24,806 nucleotides of DNA. It comes from a virus. Its lineage: Duplodnaviria; Heunggongvirae; Uroviricota; Caudoviricetes. The stretch's first letter is position 1, and each line of letters begins with the position of its first letter. The notes under the pieces are model-generated. The model searched no databases. It saw only the letters and a list, made by a program, of their open reading frames with translations, and had not been told where the DNA came from. A program made the translations under genes and the position numbers. Positions 12,898-24,806 of this stretch are shown one piece after another. The stretch is from the IMG/VR virus record IMGVR_UViG_2541047691_000012; one strand, given 5' to 3'.

Positions 12898-13270
12898 GAC
12901 TCTCCAGCTCCTGTATCAGTCAGATAATTTCACGACGCCTTCCAGTTTATCGCCACCATCGACGGTCAGACTCTTACGCAATCCCACCGCGTTGACTGTA
13001 TGTTCTCGCCGCCTCAGTGCGATTTTGACGGCCTTACCTTTCACCCCATCAAATCAAAAGCCCTCACGCCTTTTTCACGCTCAGCGTGAGAAATACAGCC
13101 ATTCTGTTGTGTCGCTGCGACATCGTTCAGGGAATGCTATTTACCCCCTGAAACGCGGGCTGTTCCCCCGTCACCTGCGCGCAGAAAAAACGCGTTTTTT
13201 TGTGCACGCACGGATCCTTGACGGATCCAGCCGCCACGCGGGCCGGAAGGGTAAAAAGTCGTTCAAAAAA

Positions 13271-13297
13271 ATTGTGCAAATTTGTGCACTATTGTGC
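13271..13297. repeat. Three phased TTGTGCA repeats (10 bp period) in the cos-proximal non-coding region
   Basis: attgtgcaaa / tttgtgcact / attgtgcatt at 13271, 13281 and 13291. GTGCAC is palindromic. Candidate protein-binding array. Confidence 0.4.
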
Positions 13298-13306
13298 ATT
13301 GAAATA

Positions 13307-13340
13307 AACGCCCTAGAGGAGGGCGTTTTACTTATCTTTT
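13307..13340 (+). terminator. Rho-independent-type terminator hairpin (aacgccct-agagg-agggcgtt) followed by a T-rich tract
   Basis: 8 bp perfect stem with 5 nt loop, followed by ttacttatctttt. Could also act on the minus strand for parMR transcripts. Confidence 0.45.
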
Positions 13341-13421
13341 ATAGCCTTGCCATGCTTTTTTTCCTTTTTCTTTGTCAATGTGTTGCATTGTGTACCCTTG
13401 TTTATGTTCCCGGATTAAAGT

Positions 13422-13444
13422 CATCAGGGCGGATGCGCCCTGAT
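13422..13444 (-). terminator. Stem-loop immediately downstream of parR (catcagggcg-gat-cgccctgatg)
   Basis: 10 bp perfect inverted repeat 7 nt after the parR stop; weak U-tract. Confidence 0.35.
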
Positions 13445-13450
13445 GTTGTG

Positions 13451-13762
13451 TTATTCGGGAAATAACGCCCGGATATTTCCGGCCATCTGACTGGTTATCT
13501 GTGCGGTTGATACTGGCTGTGATGCGGGGCGTTCTGTCCTGGTTTGTGTCACTGATAACGCTTCATCATCAGCCCATGCAGCCAGTCGGTAAGCCTCTGC
13601 CGGATTCATTTTCAGAAGTGCCAGCCCGGCCAGAAAAGCCACGCGTTGGCCGCTTTTGCGGGCTTCTGGTGTAAGGCTGTCCAGCCAGGCGCATGCTTCT
13701 CCTTCGTTCTTGACGGCGGCGGGCTTCAGATAGAAACTTATCCGTCTGGTTGGAGTCGTCAT
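13451..13762 (-). CDS. parR: ParR-like ribbon-helix-helix centromere-binding adaptor (type II partition)
   Basis: 103 aa from the internal ATG, with an AAGGAG SD 7 nt upstream. MTTPTRRISFYLKP...WLDSLTPEARKSGQRVAFLAGLALLKMNPAEA...NIRALFPE resembles my recollection of plasmid R1 ParR (KRRTIAFKLNPD...LDSIPQGERSRLNRAALTAGLALYRQDP...NILRSLFPKE). Immediately downstream of parM. Confidence 0.7.
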   Translation of the reverse strand: MTTPTRRISFYLKPAAVKNEGEACAWLDSLTPEARKSGQRVAFLAGLALLKMNPAEAYRLAAWADDEALSVTQTRTERPASQPVSTAQITSQMAGNIRALFPE

Positions 13763-13766
13763 TGGT

Positions 13767-14726
13767 TTACTCCTTGTCCATTGCGTACAGCCCATTAACC
13801 AGAGCAAACTGTGGCACCCCGTCCGCGATGAAAGTCGCATTAACTCCGCAGGCTTCGCGGATAGCGGGTGCCACAATCTCCGCCCCTCCACCGACAACCA
13901 TCACCCGCCCGTAACCCGAAAAACCCGCCAGCGCGCGGATCACGCGTTGTTTCAGTGTTTCTTCCTTTTCACGAATAACCGCCATCAGGCTGGCGTAATG
14001 CGCGTCATTGTGGATGTGCTGGCGCAGCCAGGCTTCATCATGGCGATGTTCGATAATGGTATTGGCGATGTGGTGACTGGTGCGCATACCGTTAGTGGCC
14101 ATCACCGACAGTACGGCATCGGCCATCAGAGAAACGCCTACGTGTGGATCGCAAAACACCTGGCTGATACCTGCCAGTTGCCCCTGAACCTTTGCCACAT
14201 CCAGCGTGGTTCCGCCCAAATCCACAATCAGCAGGGATTCAAACGGACTCATGTCAGCCAGTGCTTTAAAGCCAGCCGGAATGGATTCAGGCATAACCCG
14301 CACGTTACGGATAGTGAATGCTTCGCCGTTCTGGTACTCCACCGGGCGCATAACGTTCGCTTTTTTGCGGTTGATGTTGGCCATGTCCGGCTGTGCGTTT
14401 GTGTCGAAATACTCGCTCAGTGGCAGGGTAACAACCACATCCACCTCCTGTGGCGTGATGCCTGATTTGACCAGCGCGTGATGAATGGCAATGACATTCA
14501 CATCGCTGTACTGGTATTGCGTGTCGGTCGTCTGGACAAAGCGATCGCTGACCGGATCAAAACCATAGCGCACGCCATCAAGCATGTAGTTTGCGGGCTG
14601 CGTGCCACCGAACGGCGCAGACCATTCCGACTTGAAACTGTTCGGGCTGATGGCGTTGCGGCGTTCGCCGTTCTCAGTCCATGCCAGCTTGATGTTGGTG
14701 GAGCCGTCGTCGATACAAATTTTCAT
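13767..14726 (-). CDS. parM: ParM/StbA-family actin-like segregation ATPase
   Basis: 319 aa. MKICIDDGSTNIKLAW...ISPNSFKSEW...YQYSDVNVIAIHHAL...KANVMRPVEYQNGEAFTIRNVRVMPESIPAG...LLIVDLGGTTLDVAKV...MVVGGGAE closely parallels my recollection of R1 ParM (MLVFIDDGSTNIKLQW...ISPNSFKREW...WQYSDVNVVAVHHAL...VKVMPESIPAG...LLIIDLGGTTLDIS...VMVIGGGAE). SD AAGGA upstream. Confidence 0.9.
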   Translation of the reverse strand: MKICIDDGSTNIKLAWTENGERRNAISPNSFKSEWSAPFGGTQPANYMLDGVRYGFDPVSDRFVQTTDTQYQYSDVNVIAIHHALVKSGITPQEVDVVVTLPLSEYFDTNAQPDMANINRKKANVMRPVEYQNGEAFTIRNVRVMPESIPAGFKALADMSPFESLLIVDLGGTTLDVAKVQGQLAGISQVFCDPHVGVSLMADAVLSVMATNGMRTSHHIANTIIEHRHDEAWLRQHIHNDAHYASLMAVIREKEETLKQRVIRALAGFSGYGRVMVVGGGAEIVAPAIREACGVNATFIADGVPQFALVNGLYAMDKE

Positions 14727-14754
14727 GTCGATTTTCCTTATGTTGATTAATTAA

Positions 14755-14875
14755 CCGTTTACGGGATTTTTAAATCCCGCTTTCGCCTGTTTTGTGCGCA
14801 CTTCATGTTTTATGGCGCGTTTTTTGCTCATTTACGGGATTTGTGAATCCCGTTTCTGTCTGTTTTTTGTTTCCA
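14755..14875. repeat. Two ~42 bp direct repeats (73 bp period), each carrying a palindrome ACGGGATTT-n-AATCCCG; candidate parC centromere/operator
   Basis: Copy 1 at 14758-14800 (tttacgggatttttaaatcccgctttcgcctgttttgtgcgca); copy 2 at 14831-14875 (tttacgggatttgtgaatcccgtttctgtctgttttttgtttcc). Copy 1 is in the A-parM intergenic space; copy 2 overlaps the last codons of A. Confidence 0.55.
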
Positions 14876-17625
14876 CTGGTCAGGCCACCCCGCAGCAGGT
14901 CTGCTTTGCGGCGGGCGCGTTCAGTGGTTTCACTGATTCTCTGTGCGTGCTCTGCGTCACGGATGGCGCGCAGCATGTCAGAAAGCACGGTAACGGGTGT
15001 TTTCATGGTGTTCTGGTCTTGCTGAAGTGTGGATGCCAGGCGTGCGGCGGCTTCGGGGTCTGATGCCCCTAGCTGTTCCAGATAACTGGCGACCGGGTTA
15101 TGGCGGATCTCCGTGCTGCTTACGCCGTGATTACGGCTCAGGCGCTGCCAGAGCTGCGTGATTCGGTTGTCCGGGCGGGTATCCGGTTTGCGTACAATTT
15201 CAAATCCCTGCGGTGCAATGATGCTGCCGTCAACGTACAGACTGCCGCCCCGTAACAGGTGCTGCATCTGCTGTTCACCGATATGCAGGCCGAGAGATTC
15301 AGCAGACTCCCGCCATTCTTTAGCGAGTAACTCGTGGTTATCAGGCAAAGGCTGTGGCTGTTTGCGGCTCTGTGTCCAGTTCTGCATTTCAGCACTGCTG
15401 TTTTTTGCCTGTTTGTCACGCAGCGAACGCATCAGCGCCCGGCGTTCGTGCCGTTTCAGTGAGCGCATCCATTCATTCACTTCAACGCCGTCAGGGAGCT
15501 GCGGCCACAGTGCTGGCCGTTCTTCCGGCTGTTCTGTCCCGTTGTTGTTCGTTTCCTGTACACGGGGACAGTTATTGCCACGAGTCCAAGGGGCGGCAGG
15601 GCCGCCCTGAAGGTCAAAACCATTTTCGCGGGTGCTGTCCTCCGCTTCCGGTTTACGTCTTACCAGCTTCCAGTTATCCGGATGCGTGCACACACGGGAG
15701 GATTCCCCGATGAATGGCGACCAGATCCCGTAAATCTGTACACTCTGTTCGCCGTAATCGTTAAGCTCATCTGCGAGGTCGTAGGCTGTGCGAATCAGGT
15801 AGTCCTTGCGCGGAACAAGTACGCCACCCTGTTTTTCAATGTAGGTGGCAAAACACCCGGCATCAGCGGCAGCAAGAACCGCATCCATTGCGTCATCCTT
15901 CAGCCGTTGCGGGCCTTCCGGGTTGCGTGCCATCTGGCTGGCAAGGCGGCGGAGTTCACGCCACACCTGACGGGAGGGGATGCCAAAGAACTGGAACTGG
16001 CGGACCCGGTGAAGGCGCGCCCAGCCGATGGCGCGCTCCACGCTCTCGGCCATTGATTTATCTGTTTCGTGGTCAACGCGTGGCTTGCCCGTTTTCGGGT
16101 CGATGCCATCCACGGCGCGGCTGTCCAGGTTCTTTCCGATGTAGGTGGCGATGTAGCTGGTTGGCGTGCCTTTTGAGCCGTCGACGAACTCCGCCTTAAA
16201 GCGTGGGGTAATATCATCACCCAGCTCGTGACGATCTTCCTGAATGGCAATATCGCGGGTGTGGGACACAATGGTGTCGATTTCTTCCGGATGAGCAAAG
16301 ACCATCATATGCCAGTGCACGGTGCCGTCATGGTGAGGCTCCACCGTGCGGATGCCATACCAGCGCAGGCCGTCGCGGTTCAGTTTCTTGCGGACCGCTG
16401 CAAAAAACGTGTTAACCAGGTAATCGCTGGAGTCGCGCATGGTGGCCCCGTTCCATTTGGGATTCGGATGACCGTTCTCTGTTGTGGCGTGGTATTTTGA
16501 CGGGCAGGTGACAGTCAGAAACACCGCTTTGTCGCCACGGGCTTCGGCCAGAAGTTCCAGCCCCTTCATGGTGGCCATCATTTCTGCCTTACGGTGAACC
16601 GGGTTACTTACTCCCGCGTAATACACTGTCTCGAGATCAATCGTGAACCCGTCTTCGTTTTCCAGCATGAAACTTTTCAGGAAATCGCGTGTTTTCTCGC
16701 TCTGTGCGCGAAACTCGCTTAACGCGTCCTGGCTCAGATAGGGTGATGTTTTTCTGGAAACCAGACAGGCGGCGCGGAGTTGTTCTTCTCTCCACTCGCA
16801 ACGTAACAGCCACAGTTTGCGTTTCCACCATTCCGCACAGGTCAGGCGAAGGATTGCGCCCGGCAGCAGCTCCGTGTCCGGTTCGTTCCTCCGGTCTTTA
16901 TCTGTTGTCAGTGCGTCATAATGTGGAGGCATGATGTGCAGGTGTAACGCCATGCGGGCCAGCATCTGATACGCCTTCAGCGTTACATCCATGGTCAGTT
17001 CGCCATCGGTCGCGCCAAAGCCATCGCAGAGTTTTTCGAAGGTGCTGCTGAACATCGCCGCCGTCATGGTGGCCAGCGTCTGTATCTGGTGTTTGTTGAG
17101 CTGCGGCAGGTAAAGCAAATCGTCCAGGCGTTCGCGTCCGGCAAGGGAGCGATAACCCTGTGTCAGCCAGCGGTGATCGGTGCGCTCCAGACGTTCGAAT
17201 ATTTTGCGCAGGGTTCCGCGTGCATAGCGTTCCGCCTGCCAGCTCTTTTTGCCTTTCCGGCGATCGGCTTCCTGTTTTTTGCGCAGGAAGGAGAGGTGGC
17301 GAATAAGCGGATCGCGCAGATAGGACGGCAGCAGGCGCAGCGAGGCCATGGCTTCATCCACCGCGCCGCGTGCCTGTTTTCTGGCGTCTCCTGCCAGTGC
17401 GATGGTTTTGTCCTGTTTTTCCTGTGCGTCCAGGCTTTTATTAATCAGGTTGCCCAGCGGCGTGGCGGAGAACGCCGCATCAGCCATTTTCTGGCGGCGC
17501 TCGTTCTCTGCCCGGTAGGCATCCAGCCAGGAGGAAAGCACGGATTCAGGAGCGGGGATCCCCGTTCCTTCACGCCCTACTGCGTGGCGCGGTTGTTGCC
17601 AGTCCCTGATGTACTCTGTCGTCAT
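14803..17625 (-). CDS. A: Rolling-circle replication initiator endonuclease (P2 gpA-like)
   Basis: 940 aa. HHDGTVHWHMMVF matches the P2 A motif HHDGTPHWHMMLF, and YIATYIGKN matches the YxxxY catalytic tyrosine pair (P2 YVAKYISKN). Longer than P2 A (761 aa). Confidence 0.9.
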   Translation of the reverse strand: MTTEYIRDWQQPRHAVGREGTGIPAPESVLSSWLDAYRAENERRQKMADAAFSATPLGNLINKSLDAQEKQDKTIALAGDARKQARGAVDEAMASLRLLPSYLRDPLIRHLSFLRKKQEADRRKGKKSWQAERYARGTLRKIFERLERTDHRWLTQGYRSLAGRERLDDLLYLPQLNKHQIQTLATMTAAMFSSTFEKLCDGFGATDGELTMDVTLKAYQMLARMALHLHIMPPHYDALTTDKDRRNEPDTELLPGAILRLTCAEWWKRKLWLLRCEWREEQLRAACLVSRKTSPYLSQDALSEFRAQSEKTRDFLKSFMLENEDGFTIDLETVYYAGVSNPVHRKAEMMATMKGLELLAEARGDKAVFLTVTCPSKYHATTENGHPNPKWNGATMRDSSDYLVNTFFAAVRKKLNRDGLRWYGIRTVEPHHDGTVHWHMMVFAHPEEIDTIVSHTRDIAIQEDRHELGDDITPRFKAEFVDGSKGTPTSYIATYIGKNLDSRAVDGIDPKTGKPRVDHETDKSMAESVERAIGWARLHRVRQFQFFGIPSRQVWRELRRLASQMARNPEGPQRLKDDAMDAVLAAADAGCFATYIEKQGGVLVPRKDYLIRTAYDLADELNDYGEQSVQIYGIWSPFIGESSRVCTHPDNWKLVRRKPEAEDSTRENGFDLQGGPAAPWTRGNNCPRVQETNNNGTEQPEERPALWPQLPDGVEVNEWMRSLKRHERRALMRSLRDKQAKNSSAEMQNWTQSRKQPQPLPDNHELLAKEWRESAESLGLHIGEQQMQHLLRGGSLYVDGSIIAPQGFEIVRKPDTRPDNRITQLWQRLSRNHGVSSTEIRHNPVASYLEQLGASDPEAAARLASTLQQDQNTMKTPVTVLSDMLRAIRDAEHAQRISETTERARRKADLLRGGLTSGNKKQTETGFTNPVNEQKTRHKT

Positions 17626-18669: not shown

Positions 18670-19494
18670 TTACTTCACCGGAACAAACGGAACAGCGGTG
18701 TTGCTGGTCATGTATTGCGGCAGCGTGCCGTTCCATTTGTTGATTGCTTCCAGCTCCATAACGCCGGGATTCTGGCGCAGAGCTTCACCGCGTAAACGAA
18801 TGGCGTCGGCTTCAGCCTGGGCTTTTGTGCGAATGGCATCAGCCTGTCCGGCAGCTTCTGCGCGCAACATGTTGGCTTCTGCTTCGCGTTGCTTGACTTC
18901 CTGTTCGCGTTGCAGGGTTTTCTGGTTTGCCGTGACTTTGGCGTTAATGCTGTCGATAACGGTTGGCGGATATTCCGGTTTACCGACATAAGAGAGGCTC
19001 ATGACCTGAATGCCGATAGGTGTCATTTCTGACTGAATGTCTTTAAGTGCTGAATCCAGCAGTTCAGACTTGCCACCGTCGATAAACTTATCGGTGGTCA
19101 TTTTGCTGGCCAGTCGGTTGAGTGCATCGGCGATCTTCTGGCGCAGGTCAGTGTCGGTAATGTCATCCACGCCTTTGCGGTAGGTCTGAAACACAGTGGT
19201 AACTTTGGATGGATCAACTTTGTAGGCCACGCCGATGTGATAGCCGATGGTTGTGCCGTCACTCATCTGGAAGTTGAACGGCTCATCGTAAGTCTTCATT
19301 TGTTTGAAAGTCGGGAAGATGTAAACCTCTGTATTCCAGCCTGTCCAGTAGCGGCCAACGCCAACTACTTCACCGACGCCTTTATCGTCGCCCAGTTTGT
19401 TGACTTTGATGCCTACATTGCCCGGCTCCACGCGGTCACAGCCAACCAGAAGTGTGGTCATCAGGAGAGGGATGAGTGGTAATAGTTTTTTCAT
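18670..19494 (-). CDS. SPFH/band-7 (prohibitin/stomatin-like) lipoprotein
   Basis: 274 aa. Signal peptide plus lipobox (MKKLLPLIPLLMTTLLVGC). Core and C-terminal Ala/Glu/Arg/Gln-rich coiled-coil region (QREQEVKQREAEANMLRAEAAGQADAIRTKAQAEADAIRLRGEALRQNPGVMELEAINKW) typical of SPFH proteins. ATGA overlap with the upstream small membrane gene. Confidence 0.8.
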   Translation of the reverse strand: MKKLLPLIPLLMTTLLVGCDRVEPGNVGIKVNKLGDDKGVGEVVGVGRYWTGWNTEVYIFPTFKQMKTYDEPFNFQMSDGTTIGYHIGVAYKVDPSKVTTVFQTYRKGVDDITDTDLRQKIADALNRLASKMTTDKFIDGGKSELLDSALKDIQSEMTPIGIQVMSLSYVGKPEYPPTVIDSINAKVTANQKTLQREQEVKQREAEANMLRAEAAGQADAIRTKAQAEADAIRLRGEALRQNPGVMELEAINKWNGTLPQYMTSNTAVPFVPVK

Positions 19495-22777: not shown

Positions 22778-23299
22778 TTAGTTGCCTCTGTTGTTTCTGA
22801 GTTGGTTCAGTTTTGAGCTTCTGCCTGTATAAACTCGCTTACCGTTAATGGTCTGGCAGTCTTCTTTATTAGCTGGAGAGAACTTCCTTTTCTGGCGGTC
22901 ATACGTCCAGTAACTTTTCCAGTTGTGCCATTCTGGGGGCTCGTGCTCTGGTAGCTCATCAGCCAACTTGTCCCACTCTTTGGCGTTAAACCACCATACT
23001 CCGTCTGAGTTTTCATCTTCCGGGTTTGTGCGCGTCTTGTGTCCCGGCATTTGACCGCGATGAATGGCTACGCGCAGTGCAGATTTTGTTAGCCCAATAT
23101 ATGCCGCGCCTTTTTCCAGAGAGCAAAGCCCGGCGATCGGACCATCCAGCCGTAAAGTCGCTCCTTTTTTGTAGGAACGCTTTTTCTTGTTTTCTTCGTG
23201 TTCGTCGTCGTTGGCGGCATCAATGGATCCGCTGAGTGTGTCACTTTCCTGAAGTGGTTGGTGGTCAGATAACTCTTTATCGGCAATGAAGTCCCGCAT
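22778..23299 (-). CDS. cox: Cox-like excisionase/repressor with extended N- and C-termini
   Basis: 173 aa. ATG with strong SD AAGAGGA (6 nt spacing). Central region AAYIGLTKSALRVAIHRGQMPG...DGVWWFNAKEWD resembles P2 Cox (FAKLIGKSTGAVRRMIDKGKLP...GEYWVYLPAWN). Divergent from the C repressor gene. Confidence 0.6.
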   Translation of the reverse strand: MRDFIADKELSDHQPLQESDTLSGSIDAANDDEHEENKKKRSYKKGATLRLDGPIAGLCSLEKGAAYIGLTKSALRVAIHRGQMPGHKTRTNPEDENSDGVWWFNAKEWDKLADELPEHEPPEWHNWKSYWTYDRQKRKFSPANKEDCQTINGKRVYTGRSSKLNQLRNNRGN

Positions 23300-23744: not shown

Positions 23745-23813
23745 CTCTACACATTGAGCGAATTACATATCGCAAGGAGTGTTTAGTTAATTTATCCGTT
23801 GGAGGGGCTAATC

Positions 23814-24806
23814 ATGTCGATTAAGCAACTCAAAGACGGACGTTATCAGGTCGATGTCAGACCGCAGGGGGCGGAAGGAAAGCGGATTCGAAAAATCTTT
23901 GCCCTGAAATCAAAGGCTCAGGAGTTTGAGAAGTATGTGTTACAGAACTTTCATGACAAGCCATGGCAGGCTAAGCCAGCTGATCAGCGGCGATTATCAG
24001 AGCTGCTTGATGCGTGGTGGATGCTTGATGGGCGTAATCAGGCTTACGGGGATAGCTACAGGGTTAGGCTAGGGAAGGTTGTTCGTGAAATGGGAGATCC
24101 TCGCGCCAGTCAGATGACGCGAAAATTTATGCTTGAATATCGGTCAGAGAAATTACAGGCCGGATTAATGCCGTCCAGTATTAATCGTGACTTATGCGTA
24201 CTGTCTACCATGTTCACGGTGCTGATTGAAGCTGAGGTCTTTCACAACGCGAACCCTGTACGCGGTATACGAAAACTGAAAGTTCAGAACACAGAGATGG
24301 CCTTTCTTTCTGATGATGAGATTGAACGGCTTCTTGAGCGACTGGAGGGTGATGCGCGTCGTGTTGCCATTCTGTGTCTTTCTACTGGTGCCCGATGGAG
24401 TGAAGCATCGGAACTACGTGGAGAGCATATCGTTGGCAACCGGGTGACGTTCTTTAACACCAAAAACGGAAAATCCCGTTCGGTTCCTGTGGCGGATTCG
24501 GTCGTGCCTCTGATTAAAACCCGTCGAACGGGGTTATTGTATCAGGTTGATTATCTGAAGTTCCGGGAGATTCTTCAGGAGGTGAAACCGGATTTGCCGA
24601 AGGGGCAGGCTACGCATGTCATGCGTCATACATTTGCCACACACTTTATGATGAATGGCGGAAATATTGTTACGTTGCAACGAATCCTGGGGCACGCAAC
24701 GATTCAGCAAACAATGACGTACGCTCATTTTTCGCCGGACTTCTTACAGGACGCGATCAACTTTAATCCGCTGGCTGAAAGTGTCCATAAACTGTCCATC
24801 GATTAG
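23814..24806 (+). CDS. int: Tyrosine integrase (P2 Int-like site-specific recombinase)
   Basis: ATG at 23814 with SD GGAGGGG at 6 nt spacing (the track ORF begins at a TTG five codons earlier). Catalytic-domain features: ARWSE, HVMRHTFATHF, LGHATIQQTMTYAH. The stop codon is the last three bases of the window. Confidence 0.9.
   Translation: MSIKQLKDGRYQVDVRPQGAEGKRIRKIFALKSKAQEFEKYVLQNFHDKPWQAKPADQRRLSELLDAWWMLDGRNQAYGDSYRVRLGKVVREMGDPRASQMTRKFMLEYRSEKLQAGLMPSSINRDLCVLSTMFTVLIEAEVFHNANPVRGIRKLKVQNTEMAFLSDDEIERLLERLEGDARRVAILCLSTGARWSEASELRGEHIVGNRVTFFNTKNGKSRSVPVADSVVPLIKTRRTGLLYQVDYLKFREILQEVKPDLPKGQATHVMRHTFATHFMMNGGNIVTLQRILGHATIQQTMTYAHFSPDFLQDAINFNPLAESVHKLSID

Follow-up and report, generated by a model that had tools for sequence, protein, structure and literature searches.

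Two conserved dyad boxes upstream of parMR in P88-like prophages: a candidate minimal ParR-binding centromere

The A-parM-parR locus and its repeats

The window, by which we mean the whole stretch of 24,806 nucleotides that was analyzed, is a P88-like prophage (Xuanwuvirus, P2-like Peduoviridae), which displays 95-97% identity to P88, phiSM and others over the region. In it the genes A, parM and parR are consecutive and all lie on the minus strand, which is hence the sense strand in what follows, and two copies of a direct repeat, each enclosing a palindromic box, are situated at the end of gene A and in the gap between A and parM. The relevant features are listed below.

Integrase: 23799-24806, plus strand.
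Cox-like gene: 22778-23299, minus strand.
Gene A: 14803-17625, minus strand; P2-type rolling-circle replication endonuclease of 940 aa (Pfam Phage_GPA, E 2e-130).
Repeat copy 1: 14831-14869, minus strand; 39 nt, box 1 plus the A-rich leader CAAAAAACAGACAGAAA; repeat family D1.
Box 1: 14835-14852; 18-bp palindrome, sense strand CGGGATTCACAAATCCCG, within the final 22 codons of gene A; candidate ParR site.
Inter-box spacer: 14780-14834, minus strand; 55 bp, A-rich, with the A stop codon (14803-14805) and a variable 8-nt block.
Repeat copy 2: 14758-14796, minus strand; 39 nt, box 2 plus the leader CACAAAACAGGCGAAAG; repeat family D1, 82% identity to copy 1.
Box 2: 14762-14779; 18-bp palindrome, sense strand CGGGATTTAAAAATCCCG, in the A-parM gap; candidate ParR site.
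Leader between box 2 and parM: 14727-14761, minus strand; conserved ATTAATCAA at about 14743-14754 and ribosome-binding site AAGGA at 14735-14739 (from alignments).
parM: 13767-14726, minus strand; actin-like segregation ATPase of 319 aa (Pfam StbA_N 1.8e-82, ParM C-terminal domain 1.3e-68).
parR: 13451-13762, minus strand; adaptor protein of 103 aa (Pfam Plasmid_stab_B 4e-24).
Hairpins 3' of the parR stop: 13306-13445; a GC-rich pair at 13422-13445 and 13306-13328, the second with a T-rich sense-strand tail.

The gene A protein shows 31% identity to the A protein of P2. ParM matches the R1 ParM entries of the PDB (1mwk, 4a62 and 5aey) over its full length with E-values of about 1e-92 (9e-93 for 1mwk). 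In the case of ParR, a search of the PDB with the single sequence recovered no match, whereas a family profile including the window ParR matched the pB171 ParR/StbB structure (2jd3) at 2.8e-15; an AlphaFold model of the monomer, computed as a single chain, attained a pLDDT of 55.7, which is too poor for confirmation of the fold. The protein is laid out as an N-terminal TRRISFYLKP segment, which we infer to be the RHH strand of ParR, followed by two helices, a hypervariable linker and a C-terminal NIRALFPE motif. Together the Pfam matches, the R1 ParM structures and the profile match to 2jd3 identify the genes downstream of the repeats as encoding a genuine R1/pB171-type ParM and an RHH ParR, in agreement with the first-pass annotation. 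Among 20 ParR alleles ranging from 97% down to about 43% identity the N-terminal TRRISFYLKPAAVK is nearly invariant and the C-terminal NI(R/Q)xxFP is kept; the first 18 residues, like the C-terminal motif, are fixed in at least 20 alleles with identity down to about 50%. Otherwise, polymorphism in E. coli prophages is much higher in ParR than in ParM (identity from 100% to about 43-50% for ParR, versus near 99% for ParM), and ParR has a hypervariable linker at approximately aa 64-92 and RHH helices that occur in two allelic forms (alleles P0121-P0199). This polymorphism suggests recombination or diversifying selection on the adaptor.

The best minus-strand promoter-like site is found directly upstream of cox, and, judging from gene order, A-parM-parR would represent the distal end of an early (Pe-type) operon. 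The hairpins past parR are likely to mark the end of both the operon and the cassette. They fall in the 3' part of a plus-strand ORF (12992-13465, 157 aa, no Pfam match), which converges on parR such that the 3' ends overlap by 15 bp (13451-13465). The interval between parR and the portal gene is a variable cargo hot-spot, the content of which differs among P88, L176, L177, L182 and others. A minus-strand gene of the SPFH/Band 7 family (18670-19494, 274 aa, E 6e-31) is situated after cox and before A, in what appears to be the early region, and is an unusual cargo for a P2-like early operon.

The parMR cassette is present in 1308 of 5426 complete E. coli genomes, including O157:H7, O104:H4, O111 and ST131 strains, in which 1454 of its 1456 copies are chromosomal and 2 are on plasmids. 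One complete E. coli genome includes a 34,461-bp circular, non-mobilizable 'plasmid', pZ1323PEC0009-2 (NZ_CP148288.1, L181), which is an entire P88-like genome encoding A, parM, parR, terminase and capsid genes; it could represent either a plasmid-like carrier state or a phage that had been excised or induced and was caught by assembly. A Shigella boydii 'plasmid' with a ParR of 60% identity bears a degraded copy, in which the region upstream of parM runs off the record. A 226-kb Firmicute-labelled contig ('Vagococcus sp. WN89Y', NZ_JBQPOM010000071.1, L088) encoding a ParM that shares 98% identity with that of the E. coli prophages is probably a contamination or a mislabelled assembly.

Only one direct-repeat family was detected in 14300-15300, namely the two 39-nt copies, with a start-to-start distance of 73 bp. 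The first-pass annotation had described two 42 bp direct repeats; the repeats are real, but their length is 39 nt, the three extra bases barely matching. Each copy contains an 18-bp palindrome of the form CGGGATT-N4-AATCCCG with perfect 7-nt arms and the N4 spacer (on the plus strand, CGGGATTTTTAAATCCCG at 14762-14779 and CGGGATTTGTGAATCCCG at 14835-14852), a palindrome having been noted in both copies by that annotation, and the palindrome internal to A reaches 8 pairs once the flanking A/T is counted. The repeats also straddle the end of A as originally described: copy 1 corresponds to about codons -22 to -9 of A, whereas copy 2 lies in the 76-nt gap between A and the parM ATG at 14726, with the nearest edge of box 2 positioned 36 nt upstream of this ATG. 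The sense strand of the box region consists of 47% A and 14% T. Exact matches to CGGGATT-N4-AATCCCG in the 24.8-kb window are confined to the two boxes, and a degenerate cross-genus pattern distilled from four genera, YGGGW-N6-WANCCCR, similarly recovers the two boxes only, against 0.11 matches expected in shuffles (the observed count was reached in 0 of 100 shuffled windows).

The inter-box spacer has a fixed length and a poorly conserved sequence. At 14806-14813, where the last codons of A are located, the 8-nt block of the window is a minority form (sense strand ATAAAACA), most relatives having GCGATATA instead; the last three A residues differ with it (HKT vs RDI), and the window's variant abolishes a degenerate third box-like dyad that is found in the majority. 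This third dyad (CGCGATATATGAAGCGCG in most relatives, 11/14 arm positions) was rejected by inspection as an essential element, since it is destroyed by the window's 8-nt variant and is out of helical phase with the two boxes (38 and 35 bp). Bent centromere DNA arising from A-tract phasing was also set aside, given that the AAA periodicity of 10.5-11 bp in the spacer is marginal in E. coli (49/2000 shuffles) and that such phasing is absent in Hafnia and Plesiomonas.

Conservation of the boxes and their association with parMR

An arrangement with parMR after A is also found in P2-like prophages of Hafnia and Plesiomonas (ParM 62% identical) and of Serratia and Enterobacter (54-58%). The box pair occurs upstream of parM in E. 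coli, Cronobacter and a Hafnia MAG (ParM 94-100%) and in the more distant Hafnia and Plesiomonas loci (62%), as in the following examples.

E. coli: box 1 CGGGATTCACAAATCCCG, box 2 CGGGATTTAAAAATCCCG, spacing 73 bp.
Hafnia MAG (ParM 94%): box 1 CGGGATTCATGAATCCCA, box 2 CGGGATTTGAAAATCCCA, spacing 73 bp.
Hafnia: box 1 TGGGATTGAGGAAACCCA, box 2 CGGGTTCATTAAATCCCA, spacing 73 bp.
Plesiomonas: box 1 CGGGACAACAAAAACCCG, box 2 CGGGACAACACTAACCCA, spacing 72 bp.

A search of IMG/VR with the Hafnia- and Plesiomonas-type ParM yielded no useful further loci, and a scan of the GTDB species representatives recovered 3 close loci only. Across the lineages the boxes are 18-20 bp in length and have the core GGGA-N8-10-TCCC, the E. 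coli form being CGGGATT-N4-AATCCCG; the loops and the spacer have diverged among genera while the box cores and the 72-73-bp spacing persist. In an alignment of six sequences the invariant columns amount to 15/28 in the arms, 0/8 in the loops and 27/113 in the other positions (Fisher p = 0.003). Within the E. coli clade exactly two boxes are present in 79 of 81 distinct upstream sequences, 77 of these 79 having the 73-bp spacing, and the diversity is concentrated in the loop positions, with most arm positions being fixed. Single-arm substitutions are nevertheless common in this clade, at least one arm mismatch being seen in box 1 of 32/79 sequences and in box 2 of 23/79, and, with an overall pi of 0.077, repeat 2 does not fall below synonymous sites (0.066-0.09) in diversity.

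The Serratia/Enterobacter clade, in which ParR begins with NRKISFYLKP, possesses a dyad of approximately 68 bp formed from similar GGGAAC/GTTCCC ends that are arranged differently. In loci of this type (L093/L095, L096, L097 and L179) 20-nt inverted arms, GGGAACGAAATAGAAAAATG and CATTTTTCTRTTTC, are found approximately 130 nt upstream of parM and about 26 nt apart from each other. The small palindrome at the center of the Serratia/Enterobacter-type element displays compensated substitutions (GCCGC-CA-GCGGC, AGCCG-GA-CGGCT and TAGCC-AGAC-GGCTA).

Several rearranged loci, recovered from a set including 69 IMG/VR loci with the same ParM, separate the contribution of parMR from that of gene A. In L043 (IMGVR_UViG_2547132279_000014) an A protein with a different C-terminus (783 aa) is followed by an unrelated 155-aa ORF, yet both boxes are present, and homology to the window starts exactly at the upstream edge of repeat 1. 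Similarly, in a Hafnia locus (L090) the dyad element still adjoins parM despite the presence of an unrelated 167-aa ORF upstream of it, and in an Enterobacter locus (L179) a methyltransferase and a small ORF intervene between A and the parM-proximal dyad element. The converse situation is seen in the P88-like L183 (NZ_CP115358.1, 3900-4140), where parM, parR and box 2 are replaced by an ead/Ea22-like gene directly after the A stop, while the A tail and box 1 are retained despite the loss of parMR; the simplest explanation is a replacement by which the reading frame of A was left intact as far as its stop codon. Thus, comparison of these arrangements supports the proposal that the boxes travel with parMR rather than with gene A. 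The C-terminus of A itself had no relatives beyond 14 P88-like phage records. As for the 155-aa ORF of L043 (2457-2924, of unknown function), it enters box 1 in the same frame as the window A and shares its terminal TGA, and the tail KQT(E/K)TGFTNPVNEQKTR is thus attached to two unrelated proteins.

The location of one repeat copy inside A had been taken to mean that coding and centromere/operator functions overlap. The reading frame through box 1 differs between E. coli (ACG GGA TTC) and Hafnia (TAT GGG ATT), and box 2 is non-coding, which together imply that the constraint is on the nucleic acid. Unrelated ORFs extend into the T-poor stretch in four lineages with non-homologous tails, and stop codons are rare in the box region on account of its composition. 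That unrelated upstream ORFs enter this stretch in different frames makes the overlap look incidental, and it is probably a passive one.

Expression signals and alternative readings of the boxes

In the first-pass annotation the repeats were described as sitting where a combined parC and promoter would be expected upstream of parM. The conserved box pair is indeed found there, as a candidate ParR centromere/operator, but no sigma-70 promoter is detectable in or around the repeats. A standard scan returned no sigma-70 promoter-like sites in 13300-15300, and the best sense-strand pair in a relaxed scan matched at 8/12 with a non-functional -10 such as AAAAAC, leaving nothing credible; the plasmid controls showed TTGACA or TTTACA -35 elements between their iteron blocks. 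Given that no sigma-70 consensus is present and that the cassette immediately follows A and has the same orientation, transcription of parMR is probably by read-through from A or the early operon, and a weak or activator-dependent promoter may exist. The first-pass annotation had further held that parM transcription arising only by read-through from A would speak against the centromere; with read-through being the likelier source of parMR mRNA, such a transcript would not refute a centromere function. A tandem-array search at a minimum score of 30 found none in the phage region, where the sole repeat is the 39-nt pair, and recovered two period-11 arrays in the R1-like locus L006, which served as a positive control. 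The phage element is not a canonical iteron-type parC.

The probable dependence on read-through raises the alternative that the palindromes function as RNA hairpins in the A-parM transcript, either as processing or stability elements or as attenuators of read-through into parMR, and the sense strand of the window is indeed predicted to fold at the two boxes with energies of -10.7 and -11.0 kcal/mol (z = -4.4 and -5.2). We regard this as unlikely, with attenuation, which had been suggested at the outset, being disfavored by the lack of a sense U-tract, of conserved stability and of compensatory changes. The sense-strand tails, AAAUGAGC and AAACGGUU, are devoid of a U-tract, no sense-strand (minus) site is called by the terminator scan between A and parM, and a search of 13300-15300 on both strands against Rfam 15 with E up to 1 gave no match. 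The Hafnia and Plesiomonas boxes reach only -4.2 to -4.9 kcal/mol, with z near -1 in 3 of 4 (z = -3.05 in Plesiomonas box 1), even though they retain the position, the GGG/CCC cores and the spacing of 72-73 bp. G-U pairing would be compatible with some arm variants, for example AATCCTG in box 2, but every change among the distinct variants of the two boxes (14 and 17) affects one side only, and compensatory double changes are absent. Finally, the fixed 73-bp spacing is hard to explain for a pair of independent hairpins, whereas it is predicted by a pair of cooperating protein sites.

It is also quite improbable that the true binder of the boxes is another protein, whether A, Cox, C, Ogr or one from the host, or that the boxes form part of the replication origin or of gene A. 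Such a reading would accommodate the location of box 1 inside A, the annotation of P2 A as acting at an ori within its own gene, and the retention of A and box 1 by L183 in the absence of parMR and box 2. The last of these is accounted for by a replacement that kept the A frame to its stop, the boxes still adjoin parM where other genes separate it from A, and no further box is found in the window, including the int-C-cox switch region. Moreover, the P2 nick sequence is conserved elsewhere in A, at approximately 15568-15605 with 31/38 nt identical to P2, and this nick-like site is about 720 bp upstream of the boxes. The more specific proposal that the boxes are a P2-type rolling-circle ori is ruled out, as the homologue of the nick region GCGCC/TCGGAGTCCTGTCAATAAC is at this location in A and not at the boxes. 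The minus strand of the window at 15568-15605 reads GCGGCCCTGCCGCCCCTTGGACTCGTGGCAATAACTGT, versus GCGGCATCGCCGCGCCTCGGAGTCCTGTCAATAACTGT in P2, where the nick is annotated at position 29892; the region is thus conserved at the DNA level though the A proteins are only 31% identical, and by this resemblance it is probably the replication origin of the prophage.

In principle the repeats could be a scar of duplication or recombination without function, left at a module junction in the P2 cargo hot-spot (between A and cos) and conserved through recent common ancestry. Two breakpoints do fall at the repeat region, one at the upstream edge of repeat 1 (L043) and the other just past the A stop codon (L183), and the diversity of repeat 2 within the clade equals that of synonymous sites. 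Nevertheless, the persistence of the cores and the exact spacing at a ParM identity as low as 62%, with the non-coding sequence around them largely randomized, and the greater conservation of the arms relative to loops and flanks (p = 0.003) render this explanation very unlikely. Least probable is that the plus-strand hairpins and their T-rich tails are intrinsic terminators stopping antisense transcription into A from the cargo region: a terminator-like site is called at 14834-14853 with the tail TTCTGTCTGT and the other copy is followed by CTTTCGCCTGTTTTGTG, but these tails are no more than the complement of an A-rich sense strand (47% A), the Hafnia and Plesiomonas hairpins are weak, and the sole sizeable plus-strand ORF to the left (12992-13465) already has the strong hairpin at 13422-13445.

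A proposed two-dyad variant of type II partition

The interpretation that we favor, and consider reasonably probable on the comparative evidence, is that the two dyad boxes constitute a minimal, promoter-less candidate ParR-binding centromere/operator, a variant of type II partition. ParR dimers, or dimers of dimers, would read the GGGA/TCCC half-sites of each box through the N-terminal beta-ribbon (TRRISFYLKP). The 73-bp spacing would correspond to some seven helical turns and put both boxes on the same face of the A-rich, T-poor spacer, such that two bound ParR complexes could cooperate, possibly bending or coating the spacer, to form a single partition complex. The C-terminal NIRALFPE helix of ParR would then capture the ends of ParM filaments, and the phage DNA circles would be moved. 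The fixed N-terminal segment and C-terminal motif of ParR match the conservation of the boxes. Expression of parMR through read-through from A would be expected after infection or induction and not in the repressed integrated state, and ParR bound between A and parM may additionally damp this read-through. The chromosomal location of nearly all copies implies that a centromere role would be confined to the extrachromosomal phase. Counted against this interpretation are the architecture, which is unlike that of R1-family parC, the changes in the arms, the situation in L183, the differently arranged Serratia/Enterobacter dyad and the chromosomal copies.

ParMRC is the textbook plasmid 'spindle', the centromeres of which are described as long iteron arrays wrapped by ParR with an autoregulated promoter built in; the type II parC is an array of about 10 tandem direct iterons of 10-11 bp (R1) or 6 bp (pB171). 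The phage locus is like R1 parMRC (the parA locus) and pB171 par2 in its order of cis site, parM and parR, in a ParM that matches the R1 structures, in a ParR belonging to Plasmid_stab_B, and in a cis site within about 150 bp upstream of parM in A-rich DNA; the C-terminal N-x-x-x-L-F-P motif of the phage ParR is likewise common to the plasmid ParRs. In contrast, the parC sites of plasmids with ParM of 46-52% identity (R1-like L006, pOXA-48-like L002 and IncF L003) comprise 10-11-bp direct iterons grouped into two blocks, with a clear -35/-10 promoter between these, whereas the phage element comprises two 18-20-bp dyad boxes 73 bp apart, with neither a tandem array nor a promoter consensus. The replicon differs too, being an integrating P2-like prophage with an integrase and Cox, 1454 of 1456 copies of which are chromosomal. 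A search of the literature recovered only generic annotations of partition genes and no study of this parMR cassette.

Two systems of integrated elements are reminiscent of this arrangement. The srpMRC system of the SXT/R391 ICEs is a ParM-type partition system whose centromere, srpC, is located in the 5' UTR of the motor gene and is composed of 13-bp repeats, both direct and inverted; expression of the system is tied to the induction circuit of the element itself. No homology between SrpR and ParR is detectable, and SrpR binding and plasmid stabilization have been shown experimentally (Carraro et al. 2015, PMC4489591). Like the phage, these are normally integrated elements that need partition only when extrachromosomal and that use a centromere of a small set of repeats; unlike SrpR, the phage ParR is a clear member of the R1/pB171 family. 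The Corynebacterium glutamicum prophage CGP3, with its AlpAC/alpS system, encodes an actin-like filament former and a DNA adaptor that binds repeats upstream of its own operon, and a role in moving the phage DNA once induction has occurred has been proposed for the system (Forde et al. 2017, PMC5539076). Here again an integrated prophage combines an actin-like protein, an adaptor and repeated upstream sites, but AlpA is not an RHH ParR, the proteins are unrelated, alpS comprises many repetitions of a 7-bp motif, TTAAnnG, and CGP3 is a prophage outside the P2-like group in a Gram-positive host.

More tentatively, it is possible that P88-type prophages carry a working actin-type segregation machine with a centromere cut down to two phase-locked ParR dyads and with its expression slaved to the early operon. 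Such a machine might be silent when the phage is integrated and come on after infection or induction, when it could position or separate replicating circles, as has been suggested for AlpAC of CGP3, or maintain the phage in a plasmid-like carrier state, of which the 34.5-kb circular 'plasmid' that is a whole P88-like genome gives a hint.

An R1/pB171-class ParM-ParR pair is found in an integrating phage of about a quarter of complete E. coli genomes, and the only candidate cis site for it is the pair of boxes. If ParR does not bind them, these strictly spaced boxes need another explanation. If it does, they would represent a minimal natural centromere, which would test how few ParR contacts are needed to cap a ParM filament, and mutations in the boxes would offer a precise handle on lysogenization, induction yield and the carrier state. 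The question of why an integrated phage keeps a partition machine would then become directly testable.
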